Shown here piece after piece: positions 19,265 through 57,395 of a stretch of DNA of 64,000 nt. The DNA is taken from the NCBI GenBank assembly GCA_945874145.1, contig CAMCFN010000004.1, positions 5,407-69,406 on the forward strand, given 5' to 3'. Position 1 is the stretch's first letter. Every line of letters begins with the position of its first letter. The position numbers and the translations under genes are program-made. The stretch is from Akkermansia muciniphila. Lineage in GTDB: Bacteria > Verrucomicrobiota > Verrucomicrobiia > Limisphaerales > SXTU01. The notes under the pieces were generated by a model. That model saw nothing but the letters and a program-made list of their open reading frames with translations. It had not been told where the DNA came from and searched no databases.

Positions 19265-19278
19265 ACACACCTCACCTC

Positions 19279-23319: not shown

Positions 23320-25914
23320 ATGCGCCTTGCCCCGATTCTCATTCTGCTGGTCTTCGCCCAAGGGCTCCAAGCGGTGCCCGATTTCGAGCGCGAGGTGCGC
23401 CCGTTTCTCAAGCAGAACTGTTACTCCTGCCACGATGCGAAGAAGGCGAAGGCGGGCTTCCGCATTGATGAATTGGGCACGGATTTCCTCAGCGGCAAGA
23501 CGGCGGACGCCTGGCACGAGGTCATCAACCAAATCAACAGCGGCGAGATGCCGCCGAAGAAAGAGCCGAGGCCGGATGCGAAGGCGGCGTTTGCCGTGGT
23601 GGAATGGGTGGGCGCGAATCTGAAGAACGCGGAGCGGCAGGCGCGCATGGCGGGCGGGCGCATCCTGATGCGGCGGCTGAACCGGCAGGAGTATGCGAAC
23701 ACCGTCGGCGATTTGTTCCGGCTCGACCCGAATTTTGTCGAGAAGCTGAAACGCGAACTGCCCGCCGATGGCAAAGCGGAGGGCTTCGACCGCATCGGCA
23801 GCGCGCTGTTTTTCGACCAGACGCAGATGCTCGGCTATCTCGACTGGGCCGGGCAGATTGCCCGCGAGGCGGTGCAGAGCGCGCCGCCGAAGGCGGAGAC
23901 CTATGTCTATGAGGCGGAGAAGCACCTCAACAGAAACGAAGGCCCGACCGTAGAAGTGGGGCAGGCCATCGACCATCAGATTCCCCTCGGCCCCACGTTC
24001 TACGACAAGAAAGCCACGGGCGTCGAGATTTGGGCGGGCCACGGCGGCAAGCCTGATGAAGATAATAAGACGTGGGCGATGGTGCCGTATGGACCGCGCC
24101 CGGACCTGACGAAGCTGGTCACGCAGGACGGCTACTATCGAGTGCGCGTTCATGCCGGGGCCTCGACTGGCGCGCGGGGGACTCCGGTGGTGATGCGCCT
24201 CACCTACGCCGTCGGCACGCCGCTGGAGAGCATCCATGACATCACCATCGAGGGAACTTTGGAGAAACCAGGTGTGGCGGAGACGCTGGTGTTCCTGCGG
24301 GCCGGGCAGCCCGACCAGCAGAAGCCCTTGGTGCCGTCTTGGAATGGCATCAACAACCTGCGCGTCAACAATCCCGAATGGGGTGCCGTCCACCTGCGTT
24401 GGCTCATATCGCAGGGCAAACTCTCAAAAGCTGCGGCTGCACGTGACGATGCCGAAGTCGCACGACTCAAGGTCGAGCGCGAGCAGGTGCTCAAGGACTT
24501 GAATGCCTTCACCGGGCCGCGCTGGATTCCGCATCCGACGCACAACCCGGCCACCGCGCCGCGCCTCTTCCTCGATAAAATCACGGTGGAAGGTCCGCTG
24601 CCAAAGGAGTGGCCACCGGCGAGCCATGCCCTGCTCGGACTCGATGACAAAACCCCGCAGGACGAAAACGGCCTGCGCTCGGTGTTCGCATCGCTGCTGC
24701 CGAGAGCGTATCGTCGGCCCGTCGAAAAAGCGGAAGTGGATAAGCTCGTGCGCATCGCCGCCGGTGCGATGCAGCGCGAGAAGATACCCTTTCCCGATGC
24801 GCTCCGACTTGGCCTGCAAACGATGCTTTGCTCGCCGGGCTTTGTTTTCATCCAGGAGCCGCAACCGCGCGCTGCTGCTGCCGCGAAGGGCACGCGTCAG
24901 CTGAACGACTTCGAACTCGCGAGCCGCCTTTCCTATTTCCTCTGGAGCAGCCAGCCGGACGACGCGCTGCTCGCGCTCGCGGACAAAGGCACCCTGAAGC
25001 AGCCCGCGACGCTCCGCGCCCAGGTCACGCGCCTGTTAGCGGATGCGAAGAGCCGGCGTTTCGTTGAGAATTTCGCCGGTCAGTGGCTCGATGTGGAGCA
25101 GTTCGGCAGCGTGGAGCCAGCGAAGGAATACAAGAGCTATGACAACGCGCTCAAGACCGCGAGCCGCGAGGAGCCGCTGGCGTTTTTCCAGCAGGTGCTC
25201 ACGGAAAATCTGCCGGTCGCGAGCTTCCTCGACTCCGACTTCCTCGTCATCAATGAACGCCTCGCGCGGCACTACGGCATCGAGGGCGTGAGCGGCGAGA
25301 CGTTTCAAAAAGCCGCGCTCAAGCCGGAGCATCATCGCGGCGGCGTCCTCGGCATGGCCGGGCTGCTGACCTTGCTGGCTGATGGCACCCGCACACTGCC
25401 AGTGCGGCGTGGGGCGTGGGTTTTGGAGAAGCTGCTCAACGACCCGTCACCGCCTCCGCCGCCGAACGCGGGCGACATCCAGCCGAATACCGCTGGCGCG
25501 AAACTCACCGTCCGCGAGCGCCTGCAAAAGCACCGCGACGAGCCGAGCTGCGCGAGTTGCCATGCCAAGCTCGACCCCTACGGCCTCGCATTGGAGAACT
25601 ACGACGCCATCGGCGCGTGGCGCGAGCGCCAAAATGGCGAGGGCATCGGCGGAAAAAATGCGCCGGTCATTGATGCCAGCGGCGCGCTCAAATCCGGACG
25701 CGCGTTCCAAGACCTCACCGGCTACAAGGCCGGATTGATGGCCGAGCAGGACAAGTTCATCCGCGCCTTCACGGAAAAGCTGCTCACCTACGCGCTCGGC
25801 CGCCCCGTGGGCTACGTGGACCACGCCACGATCGAAACCATCCTGAAATCCGAGCCGCGCCTGCAATCGCTCGTGCAAGCGGTCGTCGCCTCCGAACCTT
25901 TTCAAACCAAGTAA
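23320..25914 (+). CDS. DUF1587/DUF1592/DUF1595/DUF1588/DUF1585 multi-domain protein with N-terminal CxxCH (planctomycete cytochrome c-like) motif
   Basis: FEREVRPFLKQNCYSCHD, MRRLNRQEYANTVGDLF, LASRLSYFLWSSQPDD, FVENFAGQWLDV, SCASCHAKLDPYGLALENYDAIGAWR. Confidence 0.85.
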   Translation: MRLAPILILLVFAQGLQAVPDFEREVRPFLKQNCYSCHDAKKAKAGFRIDELGTDFLSGKTADAWHEVINQINSGEMPPKKEPRPDAKAAFAVVEWVGANLKNAERQARMAGGRILMRRLNRQEYANTVGDLFRLDPNFVEKLKRELPADGKAEGFDRIGSALFFDQTQMLGYLDWAGQIAREAVQSAPPKAETYVYEAEKHLNRNEGPTVEVGQAIDHQIPLGPTFYDKKATGVEIWAGHGGKPDEDNKTWAMVPYGPRPDLTKLVTQDGYYRVRVHAGASTGARGTPVVMRLTYAVGTPLESIHDITIEGTLEKPGVAETLVFLRAGQPDQQKPLVPSWNGINNLRVNNPEWGAVHLRWLISQGKLSKAAAARDDAEVARLKVEREQVLKDLNAFTGPRWIPHPTHNPATAPRLFLDKITVEGPLPKEWPPASHALLGLDDKTPQDENGLRSVFASLLPRAYRRPVEKAEVDKLVRIAAGAMQREKIPFPDALRLGLQTMLCSPGFVFIQEPQPRAAAAAKGTRQLNDFELASRLSYFLWSSQPDDALLALADKGTLKQPATLRAQVTRLLADAKSRRFVENFAGQWLDVEQFGSVEPAKEYKSYDNALKTASREEPLAFFQQVLTENLPVASFLDSDFLVINERLARHYGIEGVSGETFQKAALKPEHHRGGVLGMAGLLTLLADGTRTLPVRRGAWVLEKLLNDPSPPPPPNAGDIQPNTAGAKLTVRERLQKHRDEPSCASCHAKLDPYGLALENYDAIGAWRERQNGEGIGGKNAPVIDASGALKSGRAFQDLTGYKAGLMAEQDKFIRAFTEKLLTYALGRPVGYVDHATIETILKSEPRLQSLVQAVVASEPFQTK

Positions 25915-27489: not shown

Positions 27490-28650
27490 ATGAAACCACT
27501 GCCTCTCCTCATCGCCACCCTCCTGTTCGCCGCCACACTGTCGGTCCAGGCCGCCTCGCCGCTCACGTCCGCCATCGAAGCCGCGCTCACCAGGGAGATC
27601 GCCGCCCACCACGCCGCCGGCGTCGTCACGCTCGTGATGCAGGACGGCAAGGTGATTCATCACGCTGCCACCGGACTCGCTGACCGCGACCAAAAGCTCC
27701 CGATGAAGGCCGATTCACTTTTCTGGATCGCCTCCATGACCAAGTCCGTGGCCGTCACCACGATCATGACGCTCGTGGACGAGGGCAAGCTCTCGCTCGA
27801 CGTTCCCGCGTCGCAGTGGCTGCCCGAGCTGGGCAAGGTCAAGCTCGCCAGCGGGCAGCCGCCCGCCCGCGCCATCACACTGCGTGACCTGCTGTCGCAC
27901 ACGGCGGGCATCGCGTTTCCGCCGCGCAAGTCCACCGATGGAGCGCACTCCCTCAAGGGCTACGTGGCGGAGTTGCTGCGCGCGCCCCTCGCCTTCGAGC
28001 CGGGTTCGGCCTACGAATACGGCTTTGGGATCACCGTCGCGGGCCGCATCGCGGAGCTGGTTTCCGGCAAGCCCTTTGAAGTGCTGATGCACGAGCGCGT
28101 CCTCGACCCGCTGGGCATGAAGGAGACCACGTTCCATCCCGACGCCCGCCAGCGCCCGCGCATCGCCCGCACTTACAAATCCGCCGAGGGCGGCGGCCTC
28201 GCACTGGCCAACAACGTCTTCGTCACGTCCGACCCCGCCGTGCGGCGCATGGCCGAGCCCTCGGGCGGGCTGTTCTCCACGGCGGCGGACATGGCCAAGT
28301 TCTACCAGATGATTCTCAACGGCGGCGTGCATGAGGGGAAACGCATCGTGTCGGAAAAGGCCGTCGCCGAGATGACGCGCCCGCACAAGGCCGGCGGCAA
28401 GACTCTGAACTACGGTCTCGGCTGGCAGACCGGCAACGGCGAGAGGCCGGCCGTTCCTGGTTTTTCCAAAACCGCCTTCGGCCACGGCGGCGCGTTCGCC
28501 ACGCACGGGTTCATTGATCCCGAGCGCAAACTGGTCACGGTGTTCATGGTGCAGAACGTCTTGGTGACCGGCAGCGGCGATGCGCGCAAGGCCTTCCATG
28601 ATGAAGTCAACCGCGCGCTGAAAAGCGGCGAAACAAGCTCGGCCCAGTGA
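27490..28650 (+). CDS. serine hydrolase, beta-lactamase (class C/PBP4-like) family
   Basis: Signal peptide MKPLPLLIATLLFAATLSVQA. S-x-x-K motif ASMTKSV, YEYGFG, HGGAF (KTG-equivalent region). The track ORF opens at 27430. Confidence 0.85.
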   Translation: MKPLPLLIATLLFAATLSVQAASPLTSAIEAALTREIAAHHAAGVVTLVMQDGKVIHHAATGLADRDQKLPMKADSLFWIASMTKSVAVTTIMTLVDEGKLSLDVPASQWLPELGKVKLASGQPPARAITLRDLLSHTAGIAFPPRKSTDGAHSLKGYVAELLRAPLAFEPGSAYEYGFGITVAGRIAELVSGKPFEVLMHERVLDPLGMKETTFHPDARQRPRIARTYKSAEGGGLALANNVFVTSDPAVRRMAEPSGGLFSTAADMAKFYQMILNGGVHEGKRIVSEKAVAEMTRPHKAGGKTLNYGLGWQTGNGERPAVPGFSKTAFGHGGAFATHGFIDPERKLVTVFMVQNVLVTGSGDARKAFHDEVNRALKSGETSSAQ

Positions 28651-31469
28651 ACTCACTCAAAGCCAGCCCAACCTTCCGCCAAGGTCCAGCGGCCATCTGG
28701 CCGCGCCTGTTCGCTGTGCTCTGCTTGGTTGGAGCAACGGGGCTTCACGCTGCGGAAAACACTTGGTGGTCGTATCAGCCCGTGGTCCGCCCCGCCTTGC
28801 CACCGGTGAAAAGTTCCACCTGGGTCCGCAACGACCTCGACCGCTTCATTCTCGCCAAATTGGAGGCGAAGGGGCTCCAACCCTCACCCGAGGCCGACCC
28901 GCGCACTTTGATTCGCCGCCTCTATTTCGACCTCCTCGGCCTGCCCCCTACGCCTGAGGAAGTTGAAGCGTTCGTGCGCGAGTGTTCCCCAATCGGCAAT
29001 CGGCAATCGGCAATCGCCAATCTCATTGACCGTCTCCTCGCCAGCCCGCACTACGGCGAACGCTGGGCGCGTCACTGGCTCGACATCGCCCACTACGCCG
29101 ACACCCACGGCTTCGAGCGCGACCAGCTTCGCCCCAACGCCTGGCGCTACCGCGACTACGTCATCGCCTCGCTCAACGCCGACAAGCCTTACGACCAATT
29201 CCTTCGCGAGCAAATCGCTGGCGACGTCCTCCCCCCAGCCCCCAAGCGTCAGACCCCAGACGCCATCGCCCTCGGCTTCCTCGCCGCCGGCCCGTGGGAT
29301 TTCGTCGGTCAGGTCGAGACCAAGAGCGACGTGCTCAAGCGCGCCGCCCGCGCGGACGACCTCGACGACATGGTCACGCAAGTCCTCACCGCCTCGATGG
29401 GCGTGACCATCAATTGCGCCCGCTGCCACGACCATAAGCTCGACCCCATTTCGCAGCGCGAATACTACGGCCTCTGGGCGGTCTTCGCCGGCGTGAAGCG
29501 CGGCGACCGCGAGCTGGACCCCGCCGCCACCGCGCGTCGCGAGACCGAGCGCAAGCAGCTCCAGACGCGTCTCCGCGAAGTCTCCGCCGAGTTGGGCCGC
29601 CTCACCGGCGAGGGCCTCGACCTCGCGGACATGGTCGGCGGCGGCAATGGTCGCGGCACGGGCACCAAGGGCGCGGGCCTCGACCTCCGCACCGGCAACG
29701 TGGTGAAGGACAAGCTCGGCTACCACCGCGACATCCAGCTCAACCTCCTGCAAAAGCCCGAGTGGCCGGACGCGAACACGCCGAAGTTCGTCCAGTGGGT
29801 TTTTGTGCCGGACGGCAAGTCGCCCGTGCCCGTCGCGCCGCAAGTCACCGTCAGCCACCTGCCGCCCACGTCTGGCCACGCGTGGGACGCGATTCGTAAT
29901 GGCGCGCTGAACGCCCTAGTCTCCACCAAACTCGACGGCGTGGACTTCGCGGTGGCTGGCCACTCGCTCCTTGGCCTGCATGCCAACGCCGGCATCACCT
30001 TCAACCTCGCTGAGATTCGCAAGGCCAGCGGCTTCGCGAAACTCCGCTTCACCGCACAGGTCGGCTTCGGCGCAGGACCGACTGCCGCTGCGACTCGCGC
30101 GGACTTCTCCGTTTTCGCCGGCAAGGAGCTGCTCTTCCAGAAGCTCAAACTCCGCAAAGACGAGTCCGCCCGCGTGGACGTGGCACTCCCGGACGCCGCC
30201 GAGACGCTCACGCTCGTCGCGACCGACGGCGGGGACGGCATCGGCAACGACCTGCTCTTCCTCGGCGACGCGAAGCTCTCGCTGACCGTGGAGGCGCAGA
30301 GCCTCGCCGCCGCTGACCGCGCGCGTCTGGAGACGTTGCGCGCGGAGGAGAAGCAGTTGAACACCGCCCTGGCCGCGAAGGCCGACGGCGACAAAGTCTA
30401 TGCCATCACCAGCACCGAGCCGCCCGTGGTAAAAGTCCTCCGCCGTGGCAACCCCGAGGACGCGCAGGAGGAAGTCGCGCCCGGTGTCCTCAGTTGCGTG
30501 AAGCACGCCGCCGCCGATTTCGCGCGCGCCAAGACCGAGGGCGAGCGCCGCCTCGCATTGGCCGAGTGGATTACGCATCCCGCAAACCCGCTCACCCGCC
30601 GCGTGCTCGTGAACCGCCTGTGGCACCACCACTTCGGCGTCGGTCTCGTGGACACGCCCAGCGACTTCGGCAAAGGCGGCGGCGCACCGTCGCACCCGGA
30701 GTTACTCGATTGGCTGGCGGAGGAATTCCTCGCGCGCGGCTGGTCGCTGAAGGCGATGCACCGGGTGATTTGCACGTCAGCGGCGTATCGGCAGAGTTCA
30801 GCGTTCAGTAATCAGTATTCAGTAAGCAGTGGGGGAAGCGCCAGTGTGCCGCGGAGCACCGGTCCCCCACTGAACACTGAACACTGGAAACTGAACACTG
30901 CCGCCGCCCAACACCTCGACGCCTCGAACCGCCTCCTCTGGCGTCAAAACCCCCGCCGCCTCGACGCCGAGTCCACGCGTGACGCCGTGCTTGCCGTCAG
31001 CGGCAAGCTGAACCTCACCGCCGGCGGCCCCGGCTACCGCGACTTCAAATACACCGAGGCCTACGCGCCCATCTACGACTACGTCACCGCCGACACGCCG
31101 GAGCTGTGGCGGCGCAGCATCTACCGCTTCGTCGTGCGCACCACGCCGCACACGTTCATGACCACGCTCGACTGTCCGAACCCCGCGAACCTCACGCCCG
31201 CCCGCACCGCCACCACCACCGCGCTGCAAGCCCTCGCGCTCTCGAACAACGAGTTCATCCTCCAGCAAGCCCGCCATTTCGCCGCCCGCGTGGAGCGCGA
31301 GGCGGGCGCGGACGCCGCCGCCCAAATAAACCGTGCCTTCCACCTCGCGTTCCCCCGTCCGCCCGGCTTGGCGGAACTGGCCGCCGCGCGTGACCTTGTC
31401 CGCACCGACGGCGTCTTTTCCCTGTGCCGCATGCTGCTCAACGCCAACGAATTTGTGTATGTGGATTGA
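28647..31469 (+). CDS. DUF1549/DUF1553 (PSD1-type) protein with NPCBM-like central module
   Basis: GTG start in a GTGA overlap with the upstream gene. [65 protein letters not shown]. The central segment ...[22 protein letters not shown] resembles NPCBM-type carbohydrate-binding modules. Confidence 0.85.
28991..29022 (+). repeat. in-frame heptanucleotide tandem array (AATCGGC)x3 + AATCGCC + AATC inside the CDS
   Basis: Read directly: aatcggc aatcggc aatcggc aatcgcc aatc. Encodes [10 protein letters not shown] just before the [11 protein letters not shown] block. Confidence 0.7.
30797..30900 (+). repeat. in-frame palindromic element: five TTCAGTN heptamers, 36-nt core, five NACTGAA heptamers
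   Basis: Left array at 30797-30831 and right array at 30868-30900. Perfect 10-bp stem CAGTGGGGGA/TCCCCCACTG plus 19/27 further pairs. AT-rich relative to the gene. Amounts to 87 extra nt compared with the paralog at 56804-56825. Confidence 0.75.
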
Positions 31470-31484: not shown

Positions 31485-32888
31485 ATGAAACCACTTTTGA
31501 ACCTCGCCTTCGCGGTGCTGCTGCTGGCCGCTTCCCCCGCCCTGACTGCCGCGCAGCCCAACCTCATCCTCTTCCTCGCCGATGACCTTGGCTACGGCGA
31601 TCTCGCATGCTTCGGCCACCCCATCATCAAGACGCCGAACCTCGACGCGTTCGCGAAGCAGGGCGTGCGGCTGACGCAGTGTTACTCGGCGAGCGCGGTG
31701 TGCAGTCCGTCGCGCTCGGCGCTGCTCACGGGGCGCACGCCGCATCGGAACGGCGTTTACACCTGGATTGCCGAGGGCGCGCCGGTGCATCTGCGCACGA
31801 GCGAAATCACGTTGCCCAAACTGCTCAAGAGCGCGGGCTACGCGACCTGTCACAGCGGCAAGTGGCACTTGAACGGCCTGTTCAACAACCCCGCCCAGCC
31901 GCAGCCCGGCGACCACGGTTACGACTGGTGGATGGCCACGCAGAACAACGCCGGGCCGTCGCACGAGAACCCGAGCAACTTCGTCCGCAATGGCCAGGCG
32001 GTCGGGCGGCTTGAAGGCTACTCCGCACCGCTCGTCGTCAGCGAAGCCGTGACGTGGCTGAAGGAAAAGCGCGACCCCGCGAAGCCGTTCTTCCTCGCGG
32101 TGTGGACGCACGAGCCGCACTACCCGATTAAGTCTGACCCGAAGTTCAAGGCGCTCTACCCCGACCTCGCCGACGACGTGCAGCGTGAGCATCACGCGAA
32201 CGTCACCCAGATGGACTTCGCCTTCGGCCAGCTCATGAAGGCGCTCGACGAGCAGAAGCTCGCGGACAGCACGTTCGTGTTCTTCACGTCGGACAACGGC
32301 CCGGAAGGCGATGGCATCAAGTCGCCGGGGCGCGGCTCCAGCGGCGGCTTGCGCGACCGCAAACGCTCGATGCACGAGGGCGGCATCCGCGTGCCGGGGA
32401 TCGCGCGCTGGCCCGGCAAAATCCCCGCCGGCATGACGAGCGAAGTGCCCGTCATCGGCAGCGATGTGTTCCCCACGATGCTCGGCATCGCCGGCGTTAA
32501 ACCGCCCACCGACCGCGTGCTCGACGGCGTGGATGTGTTGCCCGTGGTCACCGGCAAAGCGACGAAGGTGGAGCGTCCGCAGCCGCTCTTCTGGCGCTTG
32601 CACATGGCCCCGAACGCCAAAATCGCGATGCGTGTGGACGACTGGAAGATTCTCGCCAATGCCGAACTGACCGAGTTCGAGCTCTACAATCTCAAGACCG
32701 ACCCGAAGGAAGCCACCGACCTCAAGTCCGCCGAGCCGCAACGCTTCGCCGCGTTGCGCGAACAACTCGTGAAGCACAACGCCGCCGTGGATGCCGACGG
32801 GCCGGACTGGTGGAAAACTCTCAGCCCGAACGGCGGCAAAGCGAAGTCCGACGAGCCGCCCGCGAAGAAGAAGGGGAAGAAGAATTAG
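31485..32888 (+). CDS. Cys-type sulfatase
   Basis: NLILFLADDLGYGDL. Signature VCSPSRSALLTGRT. Signal peptide present. Confidence 0.9.
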   Translation: MKPLLNLAFAVLLLAASPALTAAQPNLILFLADDLGYGDLACFGHPIIKTPNLDAFAKQGVRLTQCYSASAVCSPSRSALLTGRTPHRNGVYTWIAEGAPVHLRTSEITLPKLLKSAGYATCHSGKWHLNGLFNNPAQPQPGDHGYDWWMATQNNAGPSHENPSNFVRNGQAVGRLEGYSAPLVVSEAVTWLKEKRDPAKPFFLAVWTHEPHYPIKSDPKFKALYPDLADDVQREHHANVTQMDFAFGQLMKALDEQKLADSTFVFFTSDNGPEGDGIKSPGRGSSGGLRDRKRSMHEGGIRVPGIARWPGKIPAGMTSEVPVIGSDVFPTMLGIAGVKPPTDRVLDGVDVLPVVTGKATKVERPQPLFWRLHMAPNAKIAMRVDDWKILANAELTEFELYNLKTDPKEATDLKSAEPQRFAALREQLVKHNAAVDADGPDWWKTLSPNGGKAKSDEPPAKKKGKKN

Positions 32889-35372: not shown

Positions 35373-35474
35373 GTCGCAACGCATTCCAATGAATATAGCT
35401 TTCGCGTTAATTCCGCCGACCACGGCTGCAACAGCGGACCACGGGTTTGGCATTTTGGTATGCGTCAACAATTC

Positions 35475-36998
35475 ATGAAAAAACTCCTGCTCACTCTGTT
35501 GGTCGCTGGCTCCTTTGCCACCGCATTCGCTGCCGCGCCTGCCCAGCCCAACATCGTCATCATGCTCGTGGATGACATGGGCGTGATGGACACCTCGGTG
35601 CCGTTTCTTACGGACGAGGCGGGCAAGCCGAAGCGGTATCCGCTCAACGATTACTACCGCACGCCAAGTATGGAGCGGCTCGCAGCCCGTGGCATTCGCT
35701 TCAACAACTTCTACGCCATGAGCGTGTGCTCGCCCACGCGCATCTCCATCATGACCGGCCAGAACGCGGCGCGGCATCGCACGACGAACTGGATCAACCC
35801 CGACAACAACAACGCCGGCCCAAGCGGCCCGTCGCAGTGGAACTGGCGTGGCCTGAAGCAGGGCGACGTGACGTTGCCCCGCCTCCTGCAGGCGAACGGC
35901 TACCGCACCATCCACGTCGGCAAGGGTCACTTTGGCCCGCGCGACTCCGACGGCGCAGACCCGCGCAACTTGGGCTTCGACATCAATGCCGGCGGAGCGT
36001 CTATCGGCGCGCCAGCAAGCTACTACGGCACGCAGGATTTCGGTCTCAAGACGAAGAATGCAAAAGCCGGCGTGCGCGGCCTGGAGAAGTATCACGGTCA
36101 GGAAATCTTCCTCACCGAGGCGCTCACACTCGAAGCCAACACGCACGTCGCCGACGCGGTGAAGGCCGACAAACCATTCTTCCTCTACTTCGCGCAATAC
36201 GCCGTCCACGCACCGTTCAACTCCGACTCACGCTTCGCCGCGCACTACGCAAACTCCGGGAAACCCGCGAACGCGCAGGCCTTCGCCACGCTCATCGAGG
36301 GCATGGACAAGTCGCTTGGCGATGTGCTGAACCAGCTCGAAAAGTTAGGCGTCGCGGAGAACACGCTGTTTGTCTTCCTCGGTGACAACGGCTCCGACGC
36401 GCCGCTTGGGCACCAGCACGAGGTTGCCTGTGCCGCGCCGTTGCGCGGGAAGAAAGGCTCGCACTACGAAGGCGGCGTGCGCGTGCCGTTCATCGCCGCG
36501 TGGGCCAAGCCGGATGCGAACAACGCCTTCCAGAAACGCCTGCCCATCGCCGCCGGATCCATCCAGAGCCAGCAGGCCGCCGTCTATGACATGTTCCCCA
36601 CCCTCCTCGCGCTCACCGGCAAGCCCGCTCCGGCGAACCACGTCGTTGACGGTGCGCGCCTCGACACGCTGCTCACCGGCAAGCGCGATGCGAGCCGCGA
36701 AGAATCGTTCCTCATGCACTACCCCCACTCGCCGCACCGCACCGACTACTTCACCACCTACCGCAACGGCGATTGGAAAGTCATCTACCACTACTTCCCG
36801 GGCGAGGTGTCCGAGAGCTCCCACTACCAGCTCTTCAACCTAAAGGCCGACCCGTTCGAGCAGAAGAACCTCGCCACGACTGAACCGACCCAGCTCAAGC
36901 GATTGATGCAGGGCCTCGCCGCTGGCTTGGAGAAACAAGCCGCCGTGTATCCGGTGGACAAGGGGACGAAGCTCGCGCTGAAGCCGAAGTTGCCATGA
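35475..36998 (+). CDS. Cys-type sulfatase
   Basis: Signal peptide MKKLLLTLLVAGSFATAFA. NIVIMLVDDMG. Signature VCSPTRISIMTGQN. An alternative ATG lies at 35460. Confidence 0.9.
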   Translation: MKKLLLTLLVAGSFATAFAAAPAQPNIVIMLVDDMGVMDTSVPFLTDEAGKPKRYPLNDYYRTPSMERLAARGIRFNNFYAMSVCSPTRISIMTGQNAARHRTTNWINPDNNNAGPSGPSQWNWRGLKQGDVTLPRLLQANGYRTIHVGKGHFGPRDSDGADPRNLGFDINAGGASIGAPASYYGTQDFGLKTKNAKAGVRGLEKYHGQEIFLTEALTLEANTHVADAVKADKPFFLYFAQYAVHAPFNSDSRFAAHYANSGKPANAQAFATLIEGMDKSLGDVLNQLEKLGVAENTLFVFLGDNGSDAPLGHQHEVACAAPLRGKKGSHYEGGVRVPFIAAWAKPDANNAFQKRLPIAAGSIQSQQAAVYDMFPTLLALTGKPAPANHVVDGARLDTLLTGKRDASREESFLMHYPHSPHRTDYFTTYRNGDWKVIYHYFPGEVSESSHYQLFNLKADPFEQKNLATTEPTQLKRLMQGLAAGLEKQAAVYPVDKGTKLALKPKLP

Positions 36999-38485
36999 AC
37001 TCACCCTCCGCCTGCAATCTCCGCCAGCACTCCGCCTCCCGCCGGGACTTCCTCTGGCAACTCGGCGGCGGCCTCGGCGGCGTGGCGTTGACCGCGTTGC
37101 TTGCGGAGCAGGCTGCATGCGCCGCCGCCCAGACGCCAGACCCCATCCCCCATCCCCAAAACCCGCTCGCTCCCAAGCCCGCGCCACACCCCGCCCGCGC
37201 TCGCGCCGTCATCCAAATCTTCTGCCCCGGCGGCCTGAGCCATGTGGACTCGTGGGATTGGAAGCCGGAGCTGGCGAAGCGCACGGGCAAGCCGTTTGAC
37301 CCCACGGGCACGGTGCAATTCTTCGCGTCCAAGCCCGGCAACTGCCAAGGCAGCTATTGGCCGTTCCGCCAGCACGGGCAGTGCGGACGCTGGATGAGCG
37401 ACTTGTTCCCGCAGTTTGCCGCGTGCGTGGACGACGTCGCGTTCATCCACTCCATGCAGAGCAAGTCCGCGCTGCACGGTCCGGCGATGTTCATGGCCAA
37501 CAGCGGCTTCATCCTGCCCGGCTTTCCGAGCATGGGCGCGTGGGTCACCTACGGCCTCGGCAGCGAGAGCGAGAACCTCCCCGCGTTCGTCGTGCTGCCC
37601 GACCCGCGCGGCCTGCCGCCCGGCGGCGTCATCAACTGGGGTGCGGGCTTCCTCCCCGCCGTGCATCAAGGCACGCCGCTCAACACCGACCCCGAGCTCC
37701 CGCCCATCGCGGACCTGTTTCCGCCGAAGAACTTCGCCGGCATCACGCCGCAGGGCGAAGTGGCCGGGCGCAACTTTCTCCAAACCCTGAACCGTCAGCA
37801 CGCCGCAGCGCGCGCGGGCAACACGGAACTCGACGCCCGCATCGCCGCCTACGAGCTGGCCGCGCGGATGCAACTCAGCGCACCCGAAGTCACCGACCTG
37901 CGCGGCGAGAGCGACGCGACGAAGCAGCTCTACACCCTCGCCGATGAGGACATCGGGCCGTTCGGTCGCCAATGCCTGCTGGCGCGGCGGCTGGTCGAGC
38001 GCGGCGTGCGCTTCGTGCAGATTTTCTGCGGCGCGGAAAACACGGGCGCGAAGAAAATCCGTCCGAACTGGGACAGCCACGAAGACCTCGTCCGCGACCA
38101 CGGCTACTGGGGCCGCGTGCTGGACACCGGCGCGGCGGCGTTGCTTACGGACCTCAAGGCGCGCGGCCTGCTCGACTCGACGCTCGTCATTTGCACGTCG
38201 GAGTTCGGTCGCCAGCCCGGCGCGCAGGGCAAGGGCCGCGACCACAACGCCGGCGCGTTCACCGCGTGGCTTGCGGGCGGCGGCATCAAGGGCGGCACGG
38301 CTTACGGCACGACGGATGAACTCGGTTCCAAGGCCGAGGAGCACCCCGCATACAGCTACGACCTCCACGCCACCGCGTTGCACCAGCTCGGCGTGGACCA
38401 CGAGCGCCTGAGCTTTTACCACAACGGCGTCCAACGCCGCCTCACCGACGTGCATGGGCATGTCGTTCGGGAGATTTTGGCGTGA
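36995..38485 (+). CDS. DUF1501 family protein with twin-arginine leader
   Basis: ATGA overlap with the sulfatase stop. SRRDFLWQLGGGLGGVALTALLA. SEFGRQPGAQGKGRDHN. Confidence 0.85.
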   Translation: MNSPSACNLRQHSASRRDFLWQLGGGLGGVALTALLAEQAACAAAQTPDPIPHPQNPLAPKPAPHPARARAVIQIFCPGGLSHVDSWDWKPELAKRTGKPFDPTGTVQFFASKPGNCQGSYWPFRQHGQCGRWMSDLFPQFAACVDDVAFIHSMQSKSALHGPAMFMANSGFILPGFPSMGAWVTYGLGSESENLPAFVVLPDPRGLPPGGVINWGAGFLPAVHQGTPLNTDPELPPIADLFPPKNFAGITPQGEVAGRNFLQTLNRQHAAARAGNTELDARIAAYELAARMQLSAPEVTDLRGESDATKQLYTLADEDIGPFGRQCLLARRLVERGVRFVQIFCGAENTGAKKIRPNWDSHEDLVRDHGYWGRVLDTGAAALLTDLKARGLLDSTLVICTSEFGRQPGAQGKGRDHNAGAFTAWLAGGGIKGGTAYGTTDELGSKAEEHPAYSYDLHATALHQLGVDHERLSFYHNGVQRRLTDVHGHVVREILA

Positions 38486-39036
38486 CCGACGCCTCTCCCC
38501 CATCGCTGCCGAAGCCTCCGCGAAAGCGGTTCCTGTCGGTTGCCGTTGCGGTTGTCGTGGCTGCGCTGGTGGGAGCCGCATTCGCATATCACTCACTCGG
38601 TTTGCGCGACCCCAACTACAACAAGTGGCGGCGGGAGTGGAAGGACGCCGCCCTTGCAGCGCTTGCCAAACAGGCTTCGGACGCCGCCTGGGTGGCGAAA
38701 GAAACTAGGGCGGTGAAAGCAAAGCTCGGAGCGCAGGGAGAAGATGATGGCGGTTGGTTCTCCAGCAACCTTCTCTTGATGAAGAATGGTGACTGGATTG
38801 CCTACGCCAGCCGGTGCAGCAAAGAGGATTGGCGCATCAGGGACATCTTCATTGGCCGTGCCACGGACGGAAAATGGTATTACTCCACCTTCCACTTTTG
38901 TTGTGGCATGTTGACGCTGCGAGTGGAAGACCGCCCGGAGAGCTTGGACAAATTTATCACCGCCTACTCGCTCCGCGAGTTTGATGGCCGCTCCGACGAG
39001 TGCCTGAAGAAAACTTGGCCGAATCCGACGCAATGA
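38482..39036 (+). CDS. hypothetical membrane-anchored protein (184 aa)
   Basis: GTG in a GTGA overlap with the DUF1501 stop. One TM, FLSVAVAVVVAALVGAAFAY. GC lower than its neighbours. No family recognised. Confidence 0.5.
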   Translation: MTDASPPSLPKPPRKRFLSVAVAVVVAALVGAAFAYHSLGLRDPNYNKWRREWKDAALAALAKQASDAAWVAKETRAVKAKLGAQGEDDGGWFSSNLLLMKNGDWIAYASRCSKEDWRIRDIFIGRATDGKWYYSTFHFCCGMLTLRVEDRPESLDKFITAYSLREFDGRSDECLKKTWPNPTQ

Positions 39037-41662: not shown

Positions 41663-41697
41663 GAGTTGAGAGATGAAGGTTGAGAGTTGAGAGGCAC
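41663..41697. repeat. heptanucleotide array (GAGTTGA-like x4-5; TCAACTC on the coding strand) in the 45-nt DUF1501-WD40 spacer
   Basis: Read directly: gagttga gagatga aggttga gagttga gaggcac. Confidence 0.6.
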
Positions 41698-46892: not shown

Positions 46893-46901
46893 CTCACACC
46901 A

Positions 46902-47618: not shown

Positions 47619-47622
47619 ACGC

Positions 47623-50457: not shown

Positions 50458-53214
50458 ATGCAACGCACCCTAGCAACGGCATTCGCGATCTGCGGCCTGG
50501 TTCTGGCCAGCGACGCAGCCGAGCACCGTGGCAAGGCACCGTCGGGCGACTGGTGGTCGCTGAAGCCGTTGGTGAAACCGGCCGTTCCTCAAATCGGCAA
50601 CCGGCAGGCGGCAAGCGCCAATCCCATTGACGCCTTCATCCTGGCCAGGCTCCGCGAGCAGAAGCTCACGCCCTCGCCCGCCGCCGACCGGGGCACGTTG
50701 ATTCGCCGGCTGACCTTCGATTTGCACGGTCTGCCGCCCACGCCGGAGGAGGTGGACCGGTTTGAGCAGGACGCCGCCGCGCAAGCGTATGAGCGACTGG
50801 TGGAGCGGCTGCTCGCCTCGCCACGCTACGGCGAGCGTTGGGCGCGGCACTGGCTGGACGTGGTTCACTACGGCGAGTCGAACGGCTTCGGCATGGACCG
50901 GCCAAGGCTGCAGGCGTGGCCATATCGGGACTACGTCATCGCCGCCTTGAACACCGACAAGCCCTACGCCCGTTTTGTGCAGGAGCAGCTCGCGGCGGAT
51001 GCGTTGTTCCCCGAGGACGCGGCGCTCGTGCCCGCGCTCGGCTTTGCGGCGGCGGGACCGTTCAACCAGAGCGCGCTCGTCGAGCAGGTGGACGGCACGG
51101 ACTGCAAGCGCATGGCGCTGAACCTCGACCGCGATGACATGGTCGCGAGCACGGCCAGCACGTTTCTCAGCCTCACGGTGCATTGCGCACGTTGTCATGA
51201 GCACAAGTTCGACCCGATTTCCCAGCAGGATTACTACCGGCTCCAAGCGGTCTTCGCGGGCGTGGGCCGCGCCGAACGGGCCTTCGATGCCGATCCCCAA
51301 GTTCGCACCCGGCGCGCCGGACTGCGCGGGCTCATCGCGGACTTGGAGAAAAATCCCGACGCCCACCCAGCGACCGCCGCCGAGCGCGACTCGCTCGCCA
51401 CCGCGCAGGCGGCGTGGGAAAAGTCCCTCGCCTCGCAGACGGTGAACTGGACTCTGCTGCCCGTGGAGCAAGTCACCTCCACGAACAGCACAACTACGTT
51501 CACCAAGCTGGATGACGGCTCGTGGCTGGCCGCCGGCACTGCGGCGGACAAGGATGTTTACACCGTGCGAGCGAGGGTCACCCTGCCCACAGTCACCGCC
51601 CTTCGGCTCGAAGTGCTCCCGGATGACCGCCTCCCGACTCGTGGTCCCGGTCGCCAGGACAATGGCAATCTGCACCTCTCGGAAATCCGCGTGAGTTTGG
51701 CGGGGACGAATGTGGCCGAGAAGCCGAAGTCGATTGCCCTGCGCAACGCCTCGGCGGATTTCAACCAGACGGGCTGGGGCATCGAGCGCGCCTTGGATGG
51801 CAAACCTGAGACGGCGTGGGGCATTCATCCGCAGGTTGGCAAGCTGCATCACGCGGTCTTTGAGTTGACCCAGCCGTCCGCTGCAACCAACGGGGTGACG
51901 CTGGTCATTCAACTGGATCAACTTCACGGCCAGCGGCATCTCATCGGGCGCTTCCGCCTGTCGGCCACCGACAAGCCCCTGCCTGTGCGGGCGCCCACGC
52001 TGCCGGTGGAGCTGCTCGCCAAGCTGGCCCGCCCGGACACCGAGCGCACCGAGGCGGAGCGCAAGCAGCTCTTCGACCTGCATCGCCTGGTGTTCTTGCG
52101 GGAACAGCTCGCGCAGCTTCCCGCCGAGCAGCGGGTCTGGGCCATCGCTGCGGACTTCGCCCCCCTGCGTAACTACAAGCCCACGAAGGAGCCGCTGCCC
52201 ATCGCGGTGCTGCACCGCGGCGACATCAAGCAGCCGCTGGCCACGGTCGGCCCCGGCGCGCTCGCAGCGGTGGGCACGCTGCCGGCGGAGTTTGCGCTCG
52301 CGAATGCGCAGGACGAATCCGCTCGCCGGGCCGCGCTGGCCCGCTGGATCACGGCCCCGGAGAACATGCTGACCTGGCGCAGCATCGTGAATCGCGTCTG
52401 GCACTGGCACTTCGGTCGCGGCCTGGTGGACACCCCGAACGACTTCGGCCGCATGGGTTCGCCGCCCACTCATCCGGAGCTGCTGGACTGGCTGGCCATC
52501 GAGTTTCGCGACAACGGCGGCACACTGAAGCAGTTGCACAAGCTCATCGTGACCAGCGCCACCTATCGGCAGATCTCCGCCACCGCCGAGGCAGGAAGGC
52601 GGAACCCTGGGATGCTCCCTGTCCGCCTTCAAACCTCGCCGGCTGCGACCGATTCGGACAACCGCTTCCTCTGGCGCATGAACCGTCCGCGCCTCGATGC
52701 GGAGGCCGTCCGCGACGCGCTGCTGGCCGCCAGCGGCAAGCTGAACCTCACGATGGGCGGTCCCTCGGCCATGCAGTTCAAGTTCGATGATCCGAACGTG
52801 AACGTCAGCCCGCGCGTGGACTACGCCGCCTTCGATCCCGACAGTCCGGCCAGCTACCGGCGCAGCGTGTATCGCTTCCTGTTTCGCAATTTGAACGATC
52901 CGCTGCTGGAAGCGCTGGACGCTGTGGACCCCTCGCTTTCCACGCCCAAGCGGAACTCGACCATCACGCCGCTTCAAGCGCTGTCGCTCTGGAACAACCG
53001 GTTCGTCCTGCGTCAGTGCGAGCACCTGGCCACGCGCGTCGAGCAGGAGGCGACCGGCCTCGAAGCCCAGATCACCCGCGCCTTCAGCCTGCTCTGCGCC
53101 CGCGCGCCATCGCGAGAGGAGATGGCACTGCTCACCGAGCACGCCCGCCGTCATGGTTTGGCCCACGCGTGCCGCGTGGTGGTGAACCTGAACGACTTCC
53201 TGTTTGTGAACTGA
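50458..53214 (+). CDS. DUF1549/DUF1553 (PSD1-type) protein
   Basis: [66 protein letters not shown] central beta-rich module reads ERALDGKPETAWGIHP. Confidence 0.85.
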   Translation: MQRTLATAFAICGLVLASDAAEHRGKAPSGDWWSLKPLVKPAVPQIGNRQAASANPIDAFILARLREQKLTPSPAADRGTLIRRLTFDLHGLPPTPEEVDRFEQDAAAQAYERLVERLLASPRYGERWARHWLDVVHYGESNGFGMDRPRLQAWPYRDYVIAALNTDKPYARFVQEQLAADALFPEDAALVPALGFAAAGPFNQSALVEQVDGTDCKRMALNLDRDDMVASTASTFLSLTVHCARCHEHKFDPISQQDYYRLQAVFAGVGRAERAFDADPQVRTRRAGLRGLIADLEKNPDAHPATAAERDSLATAQAAWEKSLASQTVNWTLLPVEQVTSTNSTTTFTKLDDGSWLAAGTAADKDVYTVRARVTLPTVTALRLEVLPDDRLPTRGPGRQDNGNLHLSEIRVSLAGTNVAEKPKSIALRNASADFNQTGWGIERALDGKPETAWGIHPQVGKLHHAVFELTQPSAATNGVTLVIQLDQLHGQRHLIGRFRLSATDKPLPVRAPTLPVELLAKLARPDTERTEAERKQLFDLHRLVFLREQLAQLPAEQRVWAIAADFAPLRNYKPTKEPLPIAVLHRGDIKQPLATVGPGALAAVGTLPAEFALANAQDESARRAALARWITAPENMLTWRSIVNRVWHWHFGRGLVDTPNDFGRMGSPPTHPELLDWLAIEFRDNGGTLKQLHKLIVTSATYRQISATAEAGRRNPGMLPVRLQTSPAATDSDNRFLWRMNRPRLDAEAVRDALLAASGKLNLTMGGPSAMQFKFDDPNVNVSPRVDYAAFDPDSPASYRRSVYRFLFRNLNDPLLEALDAVDPSLSTPKRNSTITPLQALSLWNNRFVLRQCEHLATRVEQEATGLEAQITRAFSLLCARAPSREEMALLTEHARRHGLAHACRVVVNLNDFLFVN
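50592..50626 (+). repeat. degenerate heptanucleotide array (AATCGGC AACCGGC AGGCGGC AAGCGCC AATCCCA) in frame
   Basis: Read directly. The paralog 54672 has only two units at the homologous site. The 21-nt difference equals exactly three units, and it sits after an identical 22-nt flank. Confidence 0.55.
52595..52630 (+). repeat. perfect 9-bp inverted repeat GAAGGCGGA...TCCGCCTTC (18-nt loop) inside the CDS
   Basis: Read directly. It lies in the same post-YRQ(S/I)S linker where the paralog 28647 carries the heptamer palindrome. Confidence 0.6.
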
Positions 53215-54671: not shown

Positions 54672-57395
54672 ATGCATCGCTTCAATCTCTCCTGCCCGCC
54701 GCTGCTGCGGACCCTCTCAATCGCTGCACTGGCTTCCACGCTGGTGGGCTCGGCCCCCAGCGCGGCTGCCGAGGACAAGCCCAAGTCATCGCCCACCCCG
54801 GCAGCGAAGGCCGGCGCCTCGCGTGACTGGTGGTCGTTGAAGCCGCTGGTGAAACCGGCCGTTCCTCAAACCGGCAATCCGATCGATGCCTTCATCCGTG
54901 CGAAGCTCGCGGAGAAGCAGCTTCAGCCCGCACCCGAGGCCGAGCCGCGCGTGTTGATCCGGCGACTCTACTTCGACCTCCTCGGCCTGCCACCGAAGCC
55001 CGAAGAGGTTGCGGAGTTCGAACGGGCCTGCTCAATCGGCGACCGGCAATCGGCAACCAGCAGTCTCGTGGACAAGTTGCTCGCCTCGCCGCACTACGGC
55101 GAGCGTTGGGCGCGGCACTGGCTCGACGTGGTTCACTACGGGGACACGCACGGCTACGACAAGGACAAGCCGCGCCCGAACGCCTGGCCTTACCGCGACT
55201 ACGTCATCCGTGCCTTCAACGAGGACCGGCCCTACGCACGGTTCATCCAGGAGCAGGTTGCCGGGGATGTGCTTTTTCCCAGCACGCGGGATGGCATCGA
55301 GGCGCTGGGCTTCATCGCGGCGGGGCCGTGGGACTTCATCGGCCACGCGGAGGTGCCGGAGACCAAGATTGACGGGAAGATCGCGCGCCACCTCGACCGT
55401 GACGACATGGTCGCCAACACCTTGCAGACCTTCAACAGCCTGACCGTCGGCTGCGCGCAGTGCCACGACCACAAGTTTGACCCCATCCCGCAGCGCGATT
55501 ACTACCGGCTGCACGCCGTCTTCGCCGCGCTGGACCGGGCGGACAAAAAGTATTTTACCGACGCGAAGCTCACGGCGCGCTTTGCCGAGCTGGAGCACCG
55601 TCAACGCACGCTGACCGCGCAGCGCACGGCCTTGGAGAACAAGCCGAAGCTCACTGCCGGCAAGGAACTCGAATCGCTCGACCAGCAAATCGAAGCCGCG
55701 AGCAAAGCCAAGGGCGGGCTCCGTCCCGAGTATGGCTACCACAGCGCCGTCTCACCAACGCAGGTCACGACGAAGTGGGTGCAAGTGGATTTGGGCCGCA
55801 GTGTGGCGATTGACCGCGTGGTGTTGCGGCCATGCTACGATGACTTCAACAAGATCGGCGCGGGCTTTGGTTTTCCGGTGCGTTTCAAGGTGGAAGCCAG
55901 CGAGGATGCGCAGTTTAAGTCGGGCGTGGTGGCCATCGCGGACAAGACCGCAGCGGACTTTGCCAATCCCGGCATCGCACCGCAGATCTTCAAGAGCACC
56001 GGTGCGACGGCGCGCTTCCTCCGCGTCACGGTCACCAAGCTCGCACTCCGGCAGAACGACTACATCCTCGCCCTGGCGGAGGTGCAGGTCTTCGACAGCA
56101 CCGGAAACAACGTCGCGCTCAAGGGCGGCGTCACCGCGCTCGACTCGATCGAGGCCGCGCCGCGCTGGCGAAAGGCCAACCTGACGGACGACGTCGCCCC
56201 CGCCGCCGACAACTCCGGCGCACTGGCCGAACTGCGCGCCAAGCGGGAGGCCCTGCTCGCGAAGTTCACGGACGACACGGCCCGTGCCCAACTCGCCGCA
56301 CTGGCGAAGGACATGGAACACGTGGCGGCGGAATTGAAGCAGTTTCCTAAGCCGGATGTGGTGTATGCCGGCACGGTGCATTATGGCGGTGGGGCCTTTT
56401 CCGGCACGGGACCAGCCGGGGGCAAGCCGCGCGTCATCAAGGTGCTGCATCGCGGGGATGTGAAGCAGCCCAAGGACGAGGTCATTCCCGGCGCACCGGG
56501 CTATCTCACAGGCCTGCCCGGCGAGTTCACGCTGCCTGCCGAGCACGCCGAGGGCGAACGCCGCGCCGCGCTGGCCAGGTGGCTTTCCTCAACCGACAAC
56601 TCGCTGACTTGGCGCAGCATCGTGAATCGCGTCTGGCAGTATCACTTCGGTCGCGGCCTGGTGGAGACGCCGAACGACTTCGGCCGCATGGGCGCGCTGC
56701 CGACGCACCCGGAGCTACTTGACTGGCTGGCCGTCGAGTTTCGCGACAACGGCGGCACACTGAAGCAGTTGCACAAGCTCATCGTGTCGAGCACGACGTA
56801 TCGGCAGAGTTCAAGTGTTCAGCGTGCCGCCGCCACTGACTCCGCTAACTCGCTTCTCTGGCGTCAAAACCGCCGTAAGCTCGACGCCGAGGCGGTGCGC
56901 GATGCGACGCTCTTCGTCGCCGGCAAACTGGATCCGAAGCTGGGCGGACCGGCGTTTCAGGACTTCATCGTCGAGAAGCCGGAACACTCGCCGCACTACC
57001 AGTATCATCTGCACGATCCGGAAGATCCGCGTTCGCACCGGCGTTCCGTGTATCGCTTCCTCGTGCGCTCGCAGACGCAGCCGTTCATGACCACGCTCGA
57101 CTGCGCAGACCCTTCGATGCAGGTGGGCAAGCGCAACGAAAGCGTCTCCGCGCTGCAAGCCCTCGCGTTGTTGAACAACGGACTCATGGTCACGATGTCG
57201 AAACACTTTGCTGCGAAGCTCGACGCGGGCGGCGGCGATTTAAATGCCAAAGTGGAACGCGCCTTCCGCGAAGCGCTGTCCCGAGCGCCCTCACCAGAGG
57301 AAAAGGGCGGCCTCACTGCTTACGCCCAGCAGCACGGACTGGCAAATGCCTGCCGCGTGCTTTTCAACCTGAACGAGTTCGCCTTCGTGGATTGA
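54672..57395 (+). CDS. DUF1549/DUF1553 (PSD1-type) protein with central F5/8 type C (discoidin) domain
   Basis: [59 protein letters not shown]. The central KWVQVDLGRSVAIDRVVLRP...ARFLRVTVTKL...LALAEVQVFD is discoidin-like. Confidence 0.85.
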   Translation: MHRFNLSCPPLLRTLSIAALASTLVGSAPSAAAEDKPKSSPTPAAKAGASRDWWSLKPLVKPAVPQTGNPIDAFIRAKLAEKQLQPAPEAEPRVLIRRLYFDLLGLPPKPEEVAEFERACSIGDRQSATSSLVDKLLASPHYGERWARHWLDVVHYGDTHGYDKDKPRPNAWPYRDYVIRAFNEDRPYARFIQEQVAGDVLFPSTRDGIEALGFIAAGPWDFIGHAEVPETKIDGKIARHLDRDDMVANTLQTFNSLTVGCAQCHDHKFDPIPQRDYYRLHAVFAALDRADKKYFTDAKLTARFAELEHRQRTLTAQRTALENKPKLTAGKELESLDQQIEAASKAKGGLRPEYGYHSAVSPTQVTTKWVQVDLGRSVAIDRVVLRPCYDDFNKIGAGFGFPVRFKVEASEDAQFKSGVVAIADKTAADFANPGIAPQIFKSTGATARFLRVTVTKLALRQNDYILALAEVQVFDSTGNNVALKGGVTALDSIEAAPRWRKANLTDDVAPAADNSGALAELRAKREALLAKFTDDTARAQLAALAKDMEHVAAELKQFPKPDVVYAGTVHYGGGAFSGTGPAGGKPRVIKVLHRGDVKQPKDEVIPGAPGYLTGLPGEFTLPAEHAEGERRAALARWLSSTDNSLTWRSIVNRVWQYHFGRGLVETPNDFGRMGALPTHPELLDWLAVEFRDNGGTLKQLHKLIVSSTTYRQSSSVQRAAATDSANSLLWRQNRRKLDAEAVRDATLFVAGKLDPKLGGPAFQDFIVEKPEHSPHYQYHLHDPEDPRSHRRSVYRFLVRSQTQPFMTTLDCADPSMQVGKRNESVSALQALALLNNGLMVTMSKHFAAKLDAGGGDLNAKVERAFREALSRAPSPEEKGGLTAYAQQHGLANACRVLFNLNEFAFVD
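55034..55061 (+). repeat. degenerate heptanucleotide array (AATCGGC GACCGGC AATCGGC AACCAGC) in frame
   Basis: Read directly. Encodes IGDRQSATS at the site homologous to 28991-29022. Confidence 0.5.

Follow-up and report, generated by a model that had tools for sequence, protein, structure and literature searches.

What allows a long palindromic repeat to lie within the coding sequence of a conserved protein domain, and how would it have come to be there? This question is raised by a 64,000-nucleotide stretch of the verrucomicrobial contig CAMCFN010000004.1 (assembly GCA_945874145.1), analysed here as a whole and referred to as the window. The gene at 28647..31469 on the forward strand is an open reading frame (ORF) for a 940-aa secreted-type protein with the Pfam domains PSCyt2 (DUF1549), NPCBM and PSD1 (DUF1553). 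Within it, an element of 104 bases (30797-30900) consists of two facing arrays of 7-nt units (heptamers) separated by a GC-rich core. The element is likely to be a secondary in-frame hairpin repeat that has no role in the protein and is tolerated in a permissive, poorly modelled loop.

The two arms of the element mirror each other. On the forward strand, the left arm (30797..30831) is composed of five (N)TTCAGT-type heptamers (TTCAGCG, TTCAGTA, ATCAGTA, TTCAGTA and AGCAGTG) and encodes 10 aa in addition to a serine. The right arm (30868..30900), also encoding 10 aa, is composed of five ACTGAA(N)-type heptamers (CACTGAA, CACTGAA, CACTGGA, AACTGAA and CACTG), which are the reverse complement of those on the left. 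Between the arms lies the core of 36 nt (30832..30867) with a small hairpin of its own (palindrome 30841-30862), and the flanks of the arms pair with each other as CGGCAG and CTGCCG, the former being the Arg-Gln codons of a YRQ motif. Including these outer pairs, the whole hairpin spans 120 nt (30789..30908), the segment that was aligned with five orthologues. This layout is that of a preliminary description made from the sequence alone, with one correction to the pairing: the perfect 10-bp stem between CAGTGGGGGA (30827-30836) and TCCCCCACTG (30863-30872) was recovered, but 20 of the next 28 positions outward are paired rather than 19 of 27.

In the inverted-repeat search the arms measured 38 nt, were 79% complementary and were spaced 26 nt apart, and Tandem Repeats Finder (TRF) reported tandem repeats of period 7/14 in them, with 3.7 and 4.7 copies. 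The head-to-tail 7-nt units exceed chance, which places them with heptanucleotide simple-sequence repeats; TTCAGTNTTCAGT, allowing two mismatches, matched eight times in the window, every time within the element, and shuffled sequences gave a mean of 1.8 matches, with none of 100 reaching eight. The predicted RNA fold of a 116-nt stretch, a check proposed in the preliminary description, is one long hairpin of −55.4 kcal/mol against −34.3 ± 3.7 kcal/mol for shuffles (z = −5.76, none of 200 as good). The arms are AT-rich, as had been claimed, with GC-contents of 40% (left) and 45% (right) compared to 78% in the core and 65% in the window, and the AT-richness of the left arm was matched by just 0.3% of 35-nt windows. 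Inspection of the element sequence revealed no T-run 3′ of the stem, so the hairpin is not terminator-like and this interpretation was ruled out. A known RNA family was likewise ruled out, as an Rfam search of the whole window gave nothing at gathering score and only sub-threshold generic microRNA-precursor hairpins in the region.

The encoded protein is 100% identical to database protein P0001, and its closest database relatives carry the labels Verrucomicrobiota or Limisphaerales. The host ORF is intact across the element. The low-complexity translation of 33 aa given earlier is correct, and the frame used is the only stop-free one of the three forward frames, in agreement with the proposal that a hairpin repeat has been accommodated without breaking the frame of the 940-aa protein. 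The insert corresponds to residues about 719-751, within the PSD1 domain, and is flanked by conserved motifs, ...TSAAYRQ(S)S before it and a 12-residue motif after it. In an AlphaFold2 model built with 75 homologues, confident helices (residues 701-715; predicted local distance difference test score, pLDDT, about 95) precede the insert, and the pLDDT falls below 50 at residues 721-743 and 746-750. This model has a mean pLDDT of 73.5, with poor modelling also over much of the C-terminal domain (796-858); the term "surface loop" rests on low model confidence together with the tolerance of insertions. A PDB search for a PSD1 structure returned a match confined to the NPCBM-like middle domain.

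The comparison with related genes was based on the DNA of seven orthologues, obtained by exact protein look-up, and on 80 more related loci from a metagenome scan, designated here by L numbers. No frameshifted or out-of-frame insert was found at any located site among 88 related sequences. Translational bypassing of the gene 60 or "byp" kind was set aside, since every insert is open and in frame.

If the segment were an ancestral linker, orthologues in general would be expected to encode a homologous peptide without palindromic structure, as the preliminary description pointed out. Instead, most lack the segment and have a loop of 16-20 aa, and L004, L007, L129 and L133, which carry it, keep the palindrome. 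At about 45 distinct homologous sites, a segment of 36-54 nt encodes a loop of 16-22 aa, with fold z-values from −1.8 to +1.8; among orthologues and paralogues of 54-66% identity, no state is commoner than this short, unstructured loop, and the close orthologues L005 and L134 represent an empty site. Among 19 distinct longer sites (at least 60 nt), 18 form strong hairpins (z from −3.1 to −11.8). The exception, L128 (z = −0.8), is a copy of this element that has visibly decayed, and its host gene still yields a full-length protein match. With short loops mostly unstructured and long loops hairpins, the ancestral state of the loop is short and unstructured. Presence in frame in a conserved protein gene and absence from homologues is also what characterizes Rickettsia palindromic elements (RPEs), discussed below. 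Judged from these alignments, the element is a secondary insertion. An ancestral low-complexity linker with incidental palindromy is scarcely credible: a collinear segment of identical length (47-aa loop) does occur in several orthologues, including L004 with its 64% protein identity, but the prevalence of the short loop, the palindromy of nearly all long loops and the mixing of insert types across the tree speak against it.

Six collinear copies, the window copy and five orthologous ones, align without gaps, and the element is thus inherited vertically in a sub-clade of Limisphaerales-like Verrucomicrobiota. Recombination gained no support as an explanation for the insert in L004, since identity along this protein shows no mosaic profile. 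Compared with the window copy, identity is 75-93% in the arms, 57-75% in the core and 62-80% at third codon positions of the flanks, the core being the fastest-evolving part. Orthologues of 80-86% identity have a constant number of units (4.4-4.7 copies per arm); unit number and loop length are the same in orthologues, and no repeat-number polymorphism shifting the frame was found among relatives. The consensus fold of the six copies has 39 pairs, almost all of them invariant, with one compensatory change. Covariation gives no support for a selected structure and was discarded as a sign of one, a test of little power with six copies.

The same loop, which we call the YRQ loop, is a hotspot for hairpins. 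At least ten unrelated hairpin sequences were found there in orthologues and paralogues. The TTCAGT type is present in the window, L004, L007, L129 and L133; the TTAGT type of L001 and L131 has the same layout and is probably a TTCAGT derivative with both arms changed. Further heptamer hairpins are of the GTTGAAG type (L003), the TTACG type (L006), the GAGTGTG/CCTCACT type (L132) and, in a paralogue, the CTCAGT type (L181, L185). GTAG...CTAC palindromes occupy the loop in L002, L146, L139, L136 and L163, and other hairpins do so in L148, L149, L204 and a paralogue in the window. In this last gene (50458-53214; 41% identical), a different hairpin on the forward strand (52578..52647), with 26-nt arms and the stem GAAGGCGGA/TCCGCCTTC, folds with −49.8 kcal/mol (z = −3.3). 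Its L140 orthologue (17362-20172; 89% identical) carries a TTCAGT-type hairpin at the YRQ loop instead, and on the one L140 contig three paralogues each have a different hairpin at this position. The TTCAGT type also occurs at the YRQ loop of a paralogue lineage of 44% identity, where the arms are far more alike than the genes. In a neighbour-joining tree of about 60 homologues inferred with the loop masked, the insert types are intermixed, which corresponds to roughly ten or more gains or replacements, although the tree is poorly resolved.

The window also provides a candidate for loss. In the paralogue at 54672-57395, the short loop (56805..56825, + strand) contains two TTCA-type units, TTCAAGTG and TTCAGCGT. 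The tract in the host gene was said to be exactly 87 nt (29 codons) longer than its counterpart in this paralogue, which is correct, but the anchor distances from GCAGAG to GCCGCCGCC are 103 and 16 nt and not 109 and 22 nt. In a DNA alignment of this paralogue with L140 (19483-19640), the junctions are common on both sides of the gap and the L140 hairpin fills it. By this comparison, 56805-56825 is possibly a deletion remnant of a TTCAGT-type hairpin; the TTCA footprint suggested in the preliminary description is plausible, its junctions matching the sides of the L140 hairpin, and unproven.

In relatives, further loops of this gene family likewise contain in-frame hairpins: L006 3566-3662, L007 3552-3625, L129 10483-10581, L134 4347-4426 and L204 5639-5693. 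They include a GTTCAAG heptamer hairpin, a GAGTGCG heptamer hairpin and a palindrome (GGGACA...TGTCCC) also found close to the N-terminus of an unrelated ORF.

Heptamer arrays are not restricted to hairpins. In 1.15 Mb of related contigs, 45 tandem arrays of period 7 were found compared to 1 in shuffles (period 6: 7; period 8: 14); within the window, period 7 accounts for 13 of 36 TRF rows, representing 11 separate arrays. PSCyt2/PSD1 genes contain 32 of the 45 arrays in 29% of the sequence, a strong enrichment but one inflated by shared ancestry. Strong inverted repeats as a whole show no significant enrichment in these genes, which contain 22 of 58 in the same 29% (p = 0.08), and many hairpins are intergenic. 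The arrays fall in four or five fixed places: before NPIDAF, before an 11-residue motif, between IAGDVL and GFLAAGPW, in the YRQ loop, and at the DUF1501 N-terminus before HFPAKAK.

A few units account for the recurrences. In another loop of the host gene, five CAATCGG heptamers (28989..29024, + strand; 11 aa) form a direct array without an inverted partner; this array and the CAATCGG arrays at 55033-55062 and 50590-50625 in paralogues are in frame with the peptide IGNRQSA, so that two different loops across three paralogous PSCyt2/PSD1 genes are involved. At the host-gene loop this unit is also present in L002, L003, L006, L131 and the paralogue at 55033-55062; with similar flanks it appears at both loops in relatives (L002, L003, L006, L131, L140), and it is near-perfectly preserved among orthologues of 80-86% identity. 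A third variable loop of the host gene (29226..29270, + strand; 14 aa) contains degenerate CCCCAGA-type units and is 9 nt above a baseline of 36 nt, the length found in 61 of 82 homologues; relatives have other heptamer arrays or hairpins there. Arrays of the CCCCAGA/CCCCATC type lie at this loop (29226-29270) and just upstream of the DUF1501 domain, at 47764-47789 (in the DUF1501 gene 47485-49122) and 37141-37157. The equivalent DUF1501 position in L131 (3643) has ATTCCGC units, which were seen in relatives only. An intergenic array at 41663-41693, just upstream of a minus-strand WD40-repeat gene, reads GAGTTGA on the forward strand and CTCTCAA on the other, and the CTCTCAA unit fills a coding loop of the PSCyt2/PSD1 orthologues in L131 and L132. 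Each site has different units in different lineages, with a few units recurring at non-orthologous sites and between genes; slippage alone does not explain this pattern.

A wider survey places the element in a dispersed class. Scanning 185,579 species genomes for ACTGNANACTGNANACTGNANACTG yielded at least 120 loci, compared to about 4 expected by chance according to our own estimate; the matches listed come from Planctomycetota, Acidobacteriota, Chloroflexota, Bacteroidota, Kiritimatiellia, Verrucomicrobiota and other phyla. The ACTGNAN arrays among these listed matches show the dispersal over many phyla that is expected of heptanucleotide repeats. About 25 of the elements among the matches listed have an inverted partner array, and all but one of these have the order (NNNCAGT)n-core-(ACTGNNN)n. 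Such a near-fixed order of CAGT before ACTG favours a defined element or a polar mechanism over random inverted duplication. Most inverted pairs among the matches listed have no open frame across them, and so are intergenic. Cores are unrelated between loci, and L096 contains two same-core copies on either side of a fabF-like gene. The element family anticipated in the preliminary description therefore exists at the level of a class of heptamer-array hairpins in many phyla, mostly intergenic, but no second copy of this particular element was found in the window. In the 1.15 Mb of related contigs, other heptamer hairpins are present in another loop and between genes, and no second CAGT-heptamer hairpin was found outside the YRQ loop of PSD1 genes.

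A literature search found no paper on heptamer hairpins in Planctomycetes-Verrucomicrobia-Chlamydiae (PVC) bacteria or on inserts in DUF1553 proteins. Heptamer repeats are known from other bacteria, among them the short tandemly repeated repetitive (STRR) sequences of the cyanobacterium Calothrix PCC7601. Repeats of the related heptamer TAACTGA occur in Beggiatoaceae, Cyanobacteria and Bacteroidetes (PMC4679880, MacGregor 2015) as direct arrays, mostly upstream of start codons, with one indirect repeat among 170 sets; in some ORFs they read LSVISYQ (PMC4679880). The element shares with the STRR/TAACTGA repeats a 7-nt unit with an ACTGA/TCAGT core (TCAGTAA here and TCAGTTA there, one base apart), the short, dispersed and phylogenetically patchy arrays, and the limits that stop codons set on the usable frame; the LSVISYQ-like peptides of the reverse orientation there resemble FSNQYSV and VISNQYSV here. 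Unlike them, the element has a pair of facing arrays on either side of a core, and these form a long hairpin within a conserved domain. The GGGAATC heptamer repeats of Xanthomonas are intergenic, and some are inverted with the potential to form stem-loops or cruciforms (PMC4692102, Rehm et al. 2015). They resemble the element as heptamer arrays of which some are inverted repeats, but are G-rich, G-quadruplex-forming, restricted to intergenic DNA and without reported in-frame copies in genes. In most genomes surveyed by Mrazek et al. 2007, as cited in PMC4679880 and PMC4692102, no class of long simple repeats was more abundant than heptamers, which is put down to polymerase slippage.

The hairpin structure has its own precedents. 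RPEs (Ogata et al. 2000, 2002) are described in PMC10969869 as palindromes of ~100-150 nt that sit in frame within functional protein genes, are translated into an additional, fold-compatible peptide and are regarded as selfish DNA. The window element is similarly an in-frame palindromic repeat of comparable size in a protein gene, an imperfect palindrome able to form a long hairpin. However, its arms are arrays of 7-nt units, and no sequence relation was seen, RPE sequences having been compared by description only; RPE families are multi-copy in one small genome, whereas the window element has one copy in 64 kb; and the host here is a free-living, GC-rich verrucomicrobium with many unrelated elements at one site. 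Repetitive extragenic palindromes (REPs) of the GTAG/CGTC type are short, dispersed and mostly intergenic, but some are in-frame parts of ORFs and code for 20-30 aa (PMC3733652, Di Nocera et al. 2013). In that survey, the count of intragenic REPs was highest in the verrucomicrobium Opitutus terrae, and different REPs were found at about the same place in Xanthomonas recB genes (PMC3733652). Same-loop hairpins in L002, L139, L136 and L146 resemble this class in starting with GTAG and ending with CTAC. The window element does not: no GTAG or CGTC tag is conserved at its ends or at those of its orthologous copies, and its arms of 38 nt are built of tandem heptamers, compared to the usual REP stem of 6-13 bp. 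[quoted passage not shown] The window element is likewise small and foldable, its inverted heptamer arrays constituting terminal inverted repeats, but neither a target-site duplication nor a related autonomous insertion sequence was shown for it, and no conserved internal sequence was shown across copies. By analogy, then, the element behaves like an RPE or an intragenic REP.

Taken as a tolerated secondary insertion, the element would be repeat DNA of a dispersed class related both to STRR/TAACTGA-type heptamer repeats and to REP/RPE-type palindromes, which would have landed in, or grown in, the PSD1 loop. It would survive because the loop tolerates an extra disordered peptide rich in Ser/Gly/Thr/Pro, with purifying selection retaining only versions that are stop-free and a multiple of three. 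Heptamer number would shift via slipped-strand mispairing, and the arms would stay complementary via templated correction within the hairpin or via selection against unpaired arms. The single compensatory pair among 39, the decayed L128 copy and the absence of an Rfam family give little sign of a selected structure, consistent with a tolerated repeat. Several observations weigh against this interpretation. The arms are more conserved than flank synonymous third positions, so the hairpin is possibly maintained. In the 1.15 Mb of related contigs, the arms matched only copies at the same loop, and the insert peptide, searched with HMMER against 1.84 billion representative proteins, matched no other protein family, only two unrelated repetitive proteins. 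A rough count puts the independent gains of a hairpin across the 88 related sequences at about a dozen, and by a rough estimate the occupancy of the YRQ loop is more than 10 times the per-site intergenic occupancy in the same contigs. With such an excess, tolerance alone may not explain the hotspot.

How the element arrived is a separate matter. We give an even chance to its arrival as a copy, through transposition or short-patch conversion between paralogues. Local growth is possible, although we think it less probable: an element that was never mobile would have begun as a loop heptamer expanded by replication slippage, its inverted partner being then copied by fold-back or template switching, and later slippage together with correction within the hairpin would have kept the arms similar. 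The over-representation of period-7 arrays, the slippage explanation offered for heptamer excess in the literature cited above, the partnerless direct arrays in other loops of the family and the unrelated cores of different loci all fit this scenario, as does the empty site, which already has a small inverted repeat, GGCAG...CTGCC, at its base. Against the empty sites of L005 and L134, the element shows no direct repeat on either side of its arms that would indicate a target-site duplication, and no second copy of it was found in the 64-kb window; these two results also favour local growth and count against a dispersed repeat. On the other hand, slippage in place does not account for the recurrence of a few units at non-orthologous sites and between genes, or for the near-universal arrangement (about 25 to 1 among the matches listed) that points to defined ends or a polar mechanism. 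Several same-loop neighbours, moreover, are REP-like palindromes with a GTAG tag, whose mobilisation is attributed to REP-associated tyrosine transposases (RAYTs, of the IS200/IS605 type), and the TTCAGT type recurs at the same loop of the paralogue lineage of 44% identity, its arms diverging far less than the genes.

A selected function at the RNA or DNA level, for instance in pausing translation between folding units, in mRNA stability or in binding a protein, would explain why hairpins of unrelated sequence recur at a single codon-level site, in paralogues as well as orthologues, why the site is occupied more often than intergenic DNA and why the arms are conserved while the core drifts. 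We nevertheless consider it improbable, since most homologues, including close ones, have no structure at the loop, the L128 gene persists with a decayed copy, compensatory changes are limited to one pair, similar hairpins are intergenic in many phyla, and there is neither an Rfam family nor a T-run. Seven not being a multiple of three, adding or losing a single unit would turn the gene off and on, and a contingency (phase-variation) locus could in this way create heterogeneity in a large paralogous family. The concentration of period-7 arrays in PSCyt2/PSD1 genes and the role of heptanucleotide repeats in Haemophilus phase variation (PMC8262952) agree with this idea; it is highly improbable, however, given the constant unit number in orthologues of 80-86% identity, the absence of frameshifted alleles at the located sites of the 88 related sequences, and arrays of four or five imperfect units, which are short for efficient slippage. 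A more far-reaching proposal, which we regard as unlikely, is that an active directed process in the PVC lineage installs arrays of a few heptamers (CAATCGG, ATTCCGC, CCCCAGA, CTCTCAA and NTTCAGT), singly or as inverted hairpin pairs, into four or five fixed loops of the greatly expanded PSCyt2/PSD1 family and DUF1501 N-termini, the YRQ loop being targeted and not merely tolerant. If true, it would represent a repeat-insertion mechanism that diversifies the loops of one protein family.

PSCyt/PSD-family genes are densely clustered in the window (215-2746, 23320-25914, 28647-31469, 44702-47182 on the minus strand, 50458-53214 and 54672-57395) with DUF1501 genes (36995-38485, 47485-49122, 53221-54651) and sulfatases (31485-32888, 35460-36998), a content typical of PVC bacteria. 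No transposase was detected among the 18 window ORFs scanned against Pfam, and no search aimed at RAYT genes was made. The strongest inverted repeat of the window is a different one, at 39089-39225, with arms of 50 nt that are 84% complementary (CTCCCTCACCCTGGCCCTCTCCCGCTGGGAGAGGG...) and read LTPALSRWERE. It covers codons 30-75 of the ORF 39000-40646, a flavin adenine dinucleotide (FAD)-dependent oxidoreductase, and the same palindrome is found at the equivalent place in L133 (8129-8265). Since the repeat precedes the start of the Pfam domain (residue 132) by about 55 codons, and also precedes a likely twin-arginine (RRQF) signal motif, it probably lies 5′ of the true start of this ORF. Directly after the stop codon of 54672-57395, an inverted repeat at 57401-57486 has 20-nt arms, 90% complementary and 46 nt apart, and is probably an intergenic REP-like or terminator-like hairpin.

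In-frame palindromes, familiar above all from Rickettsia and recorded in other bacteria by the 2013 survey of REPs, are now seen in a free-living, GC-rich verrucomicrobium, in the form of a different element made of inverted arrays of 7-nt units. To our knowledge, the origin of STRR-type heptamer repeats is still unexplained. The fixed (NNNCAGT)n-core-(ACTGNNN)n order across phyla and the small set of recurring units make this origin testable in these genomes, and a directed insertion process, if real, would offer a handle on it. One loop of one domain, with at least ten unrelated hairpin inserts in close relatives, constitutes a natural experiment, in which all inserts above the baseline are hairpins, intact or decayed. 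Differences in loop length within the PSCyt2/PSD1 family would on this evidence stem largely from hairpin and heptamer repeat DNA and not from ordinary indels. For annotation, low-complexity segments of PSCyt2/PSD1 and DUF1501 proteins should be treated as repeat-derived sequence and not as functional motifs.

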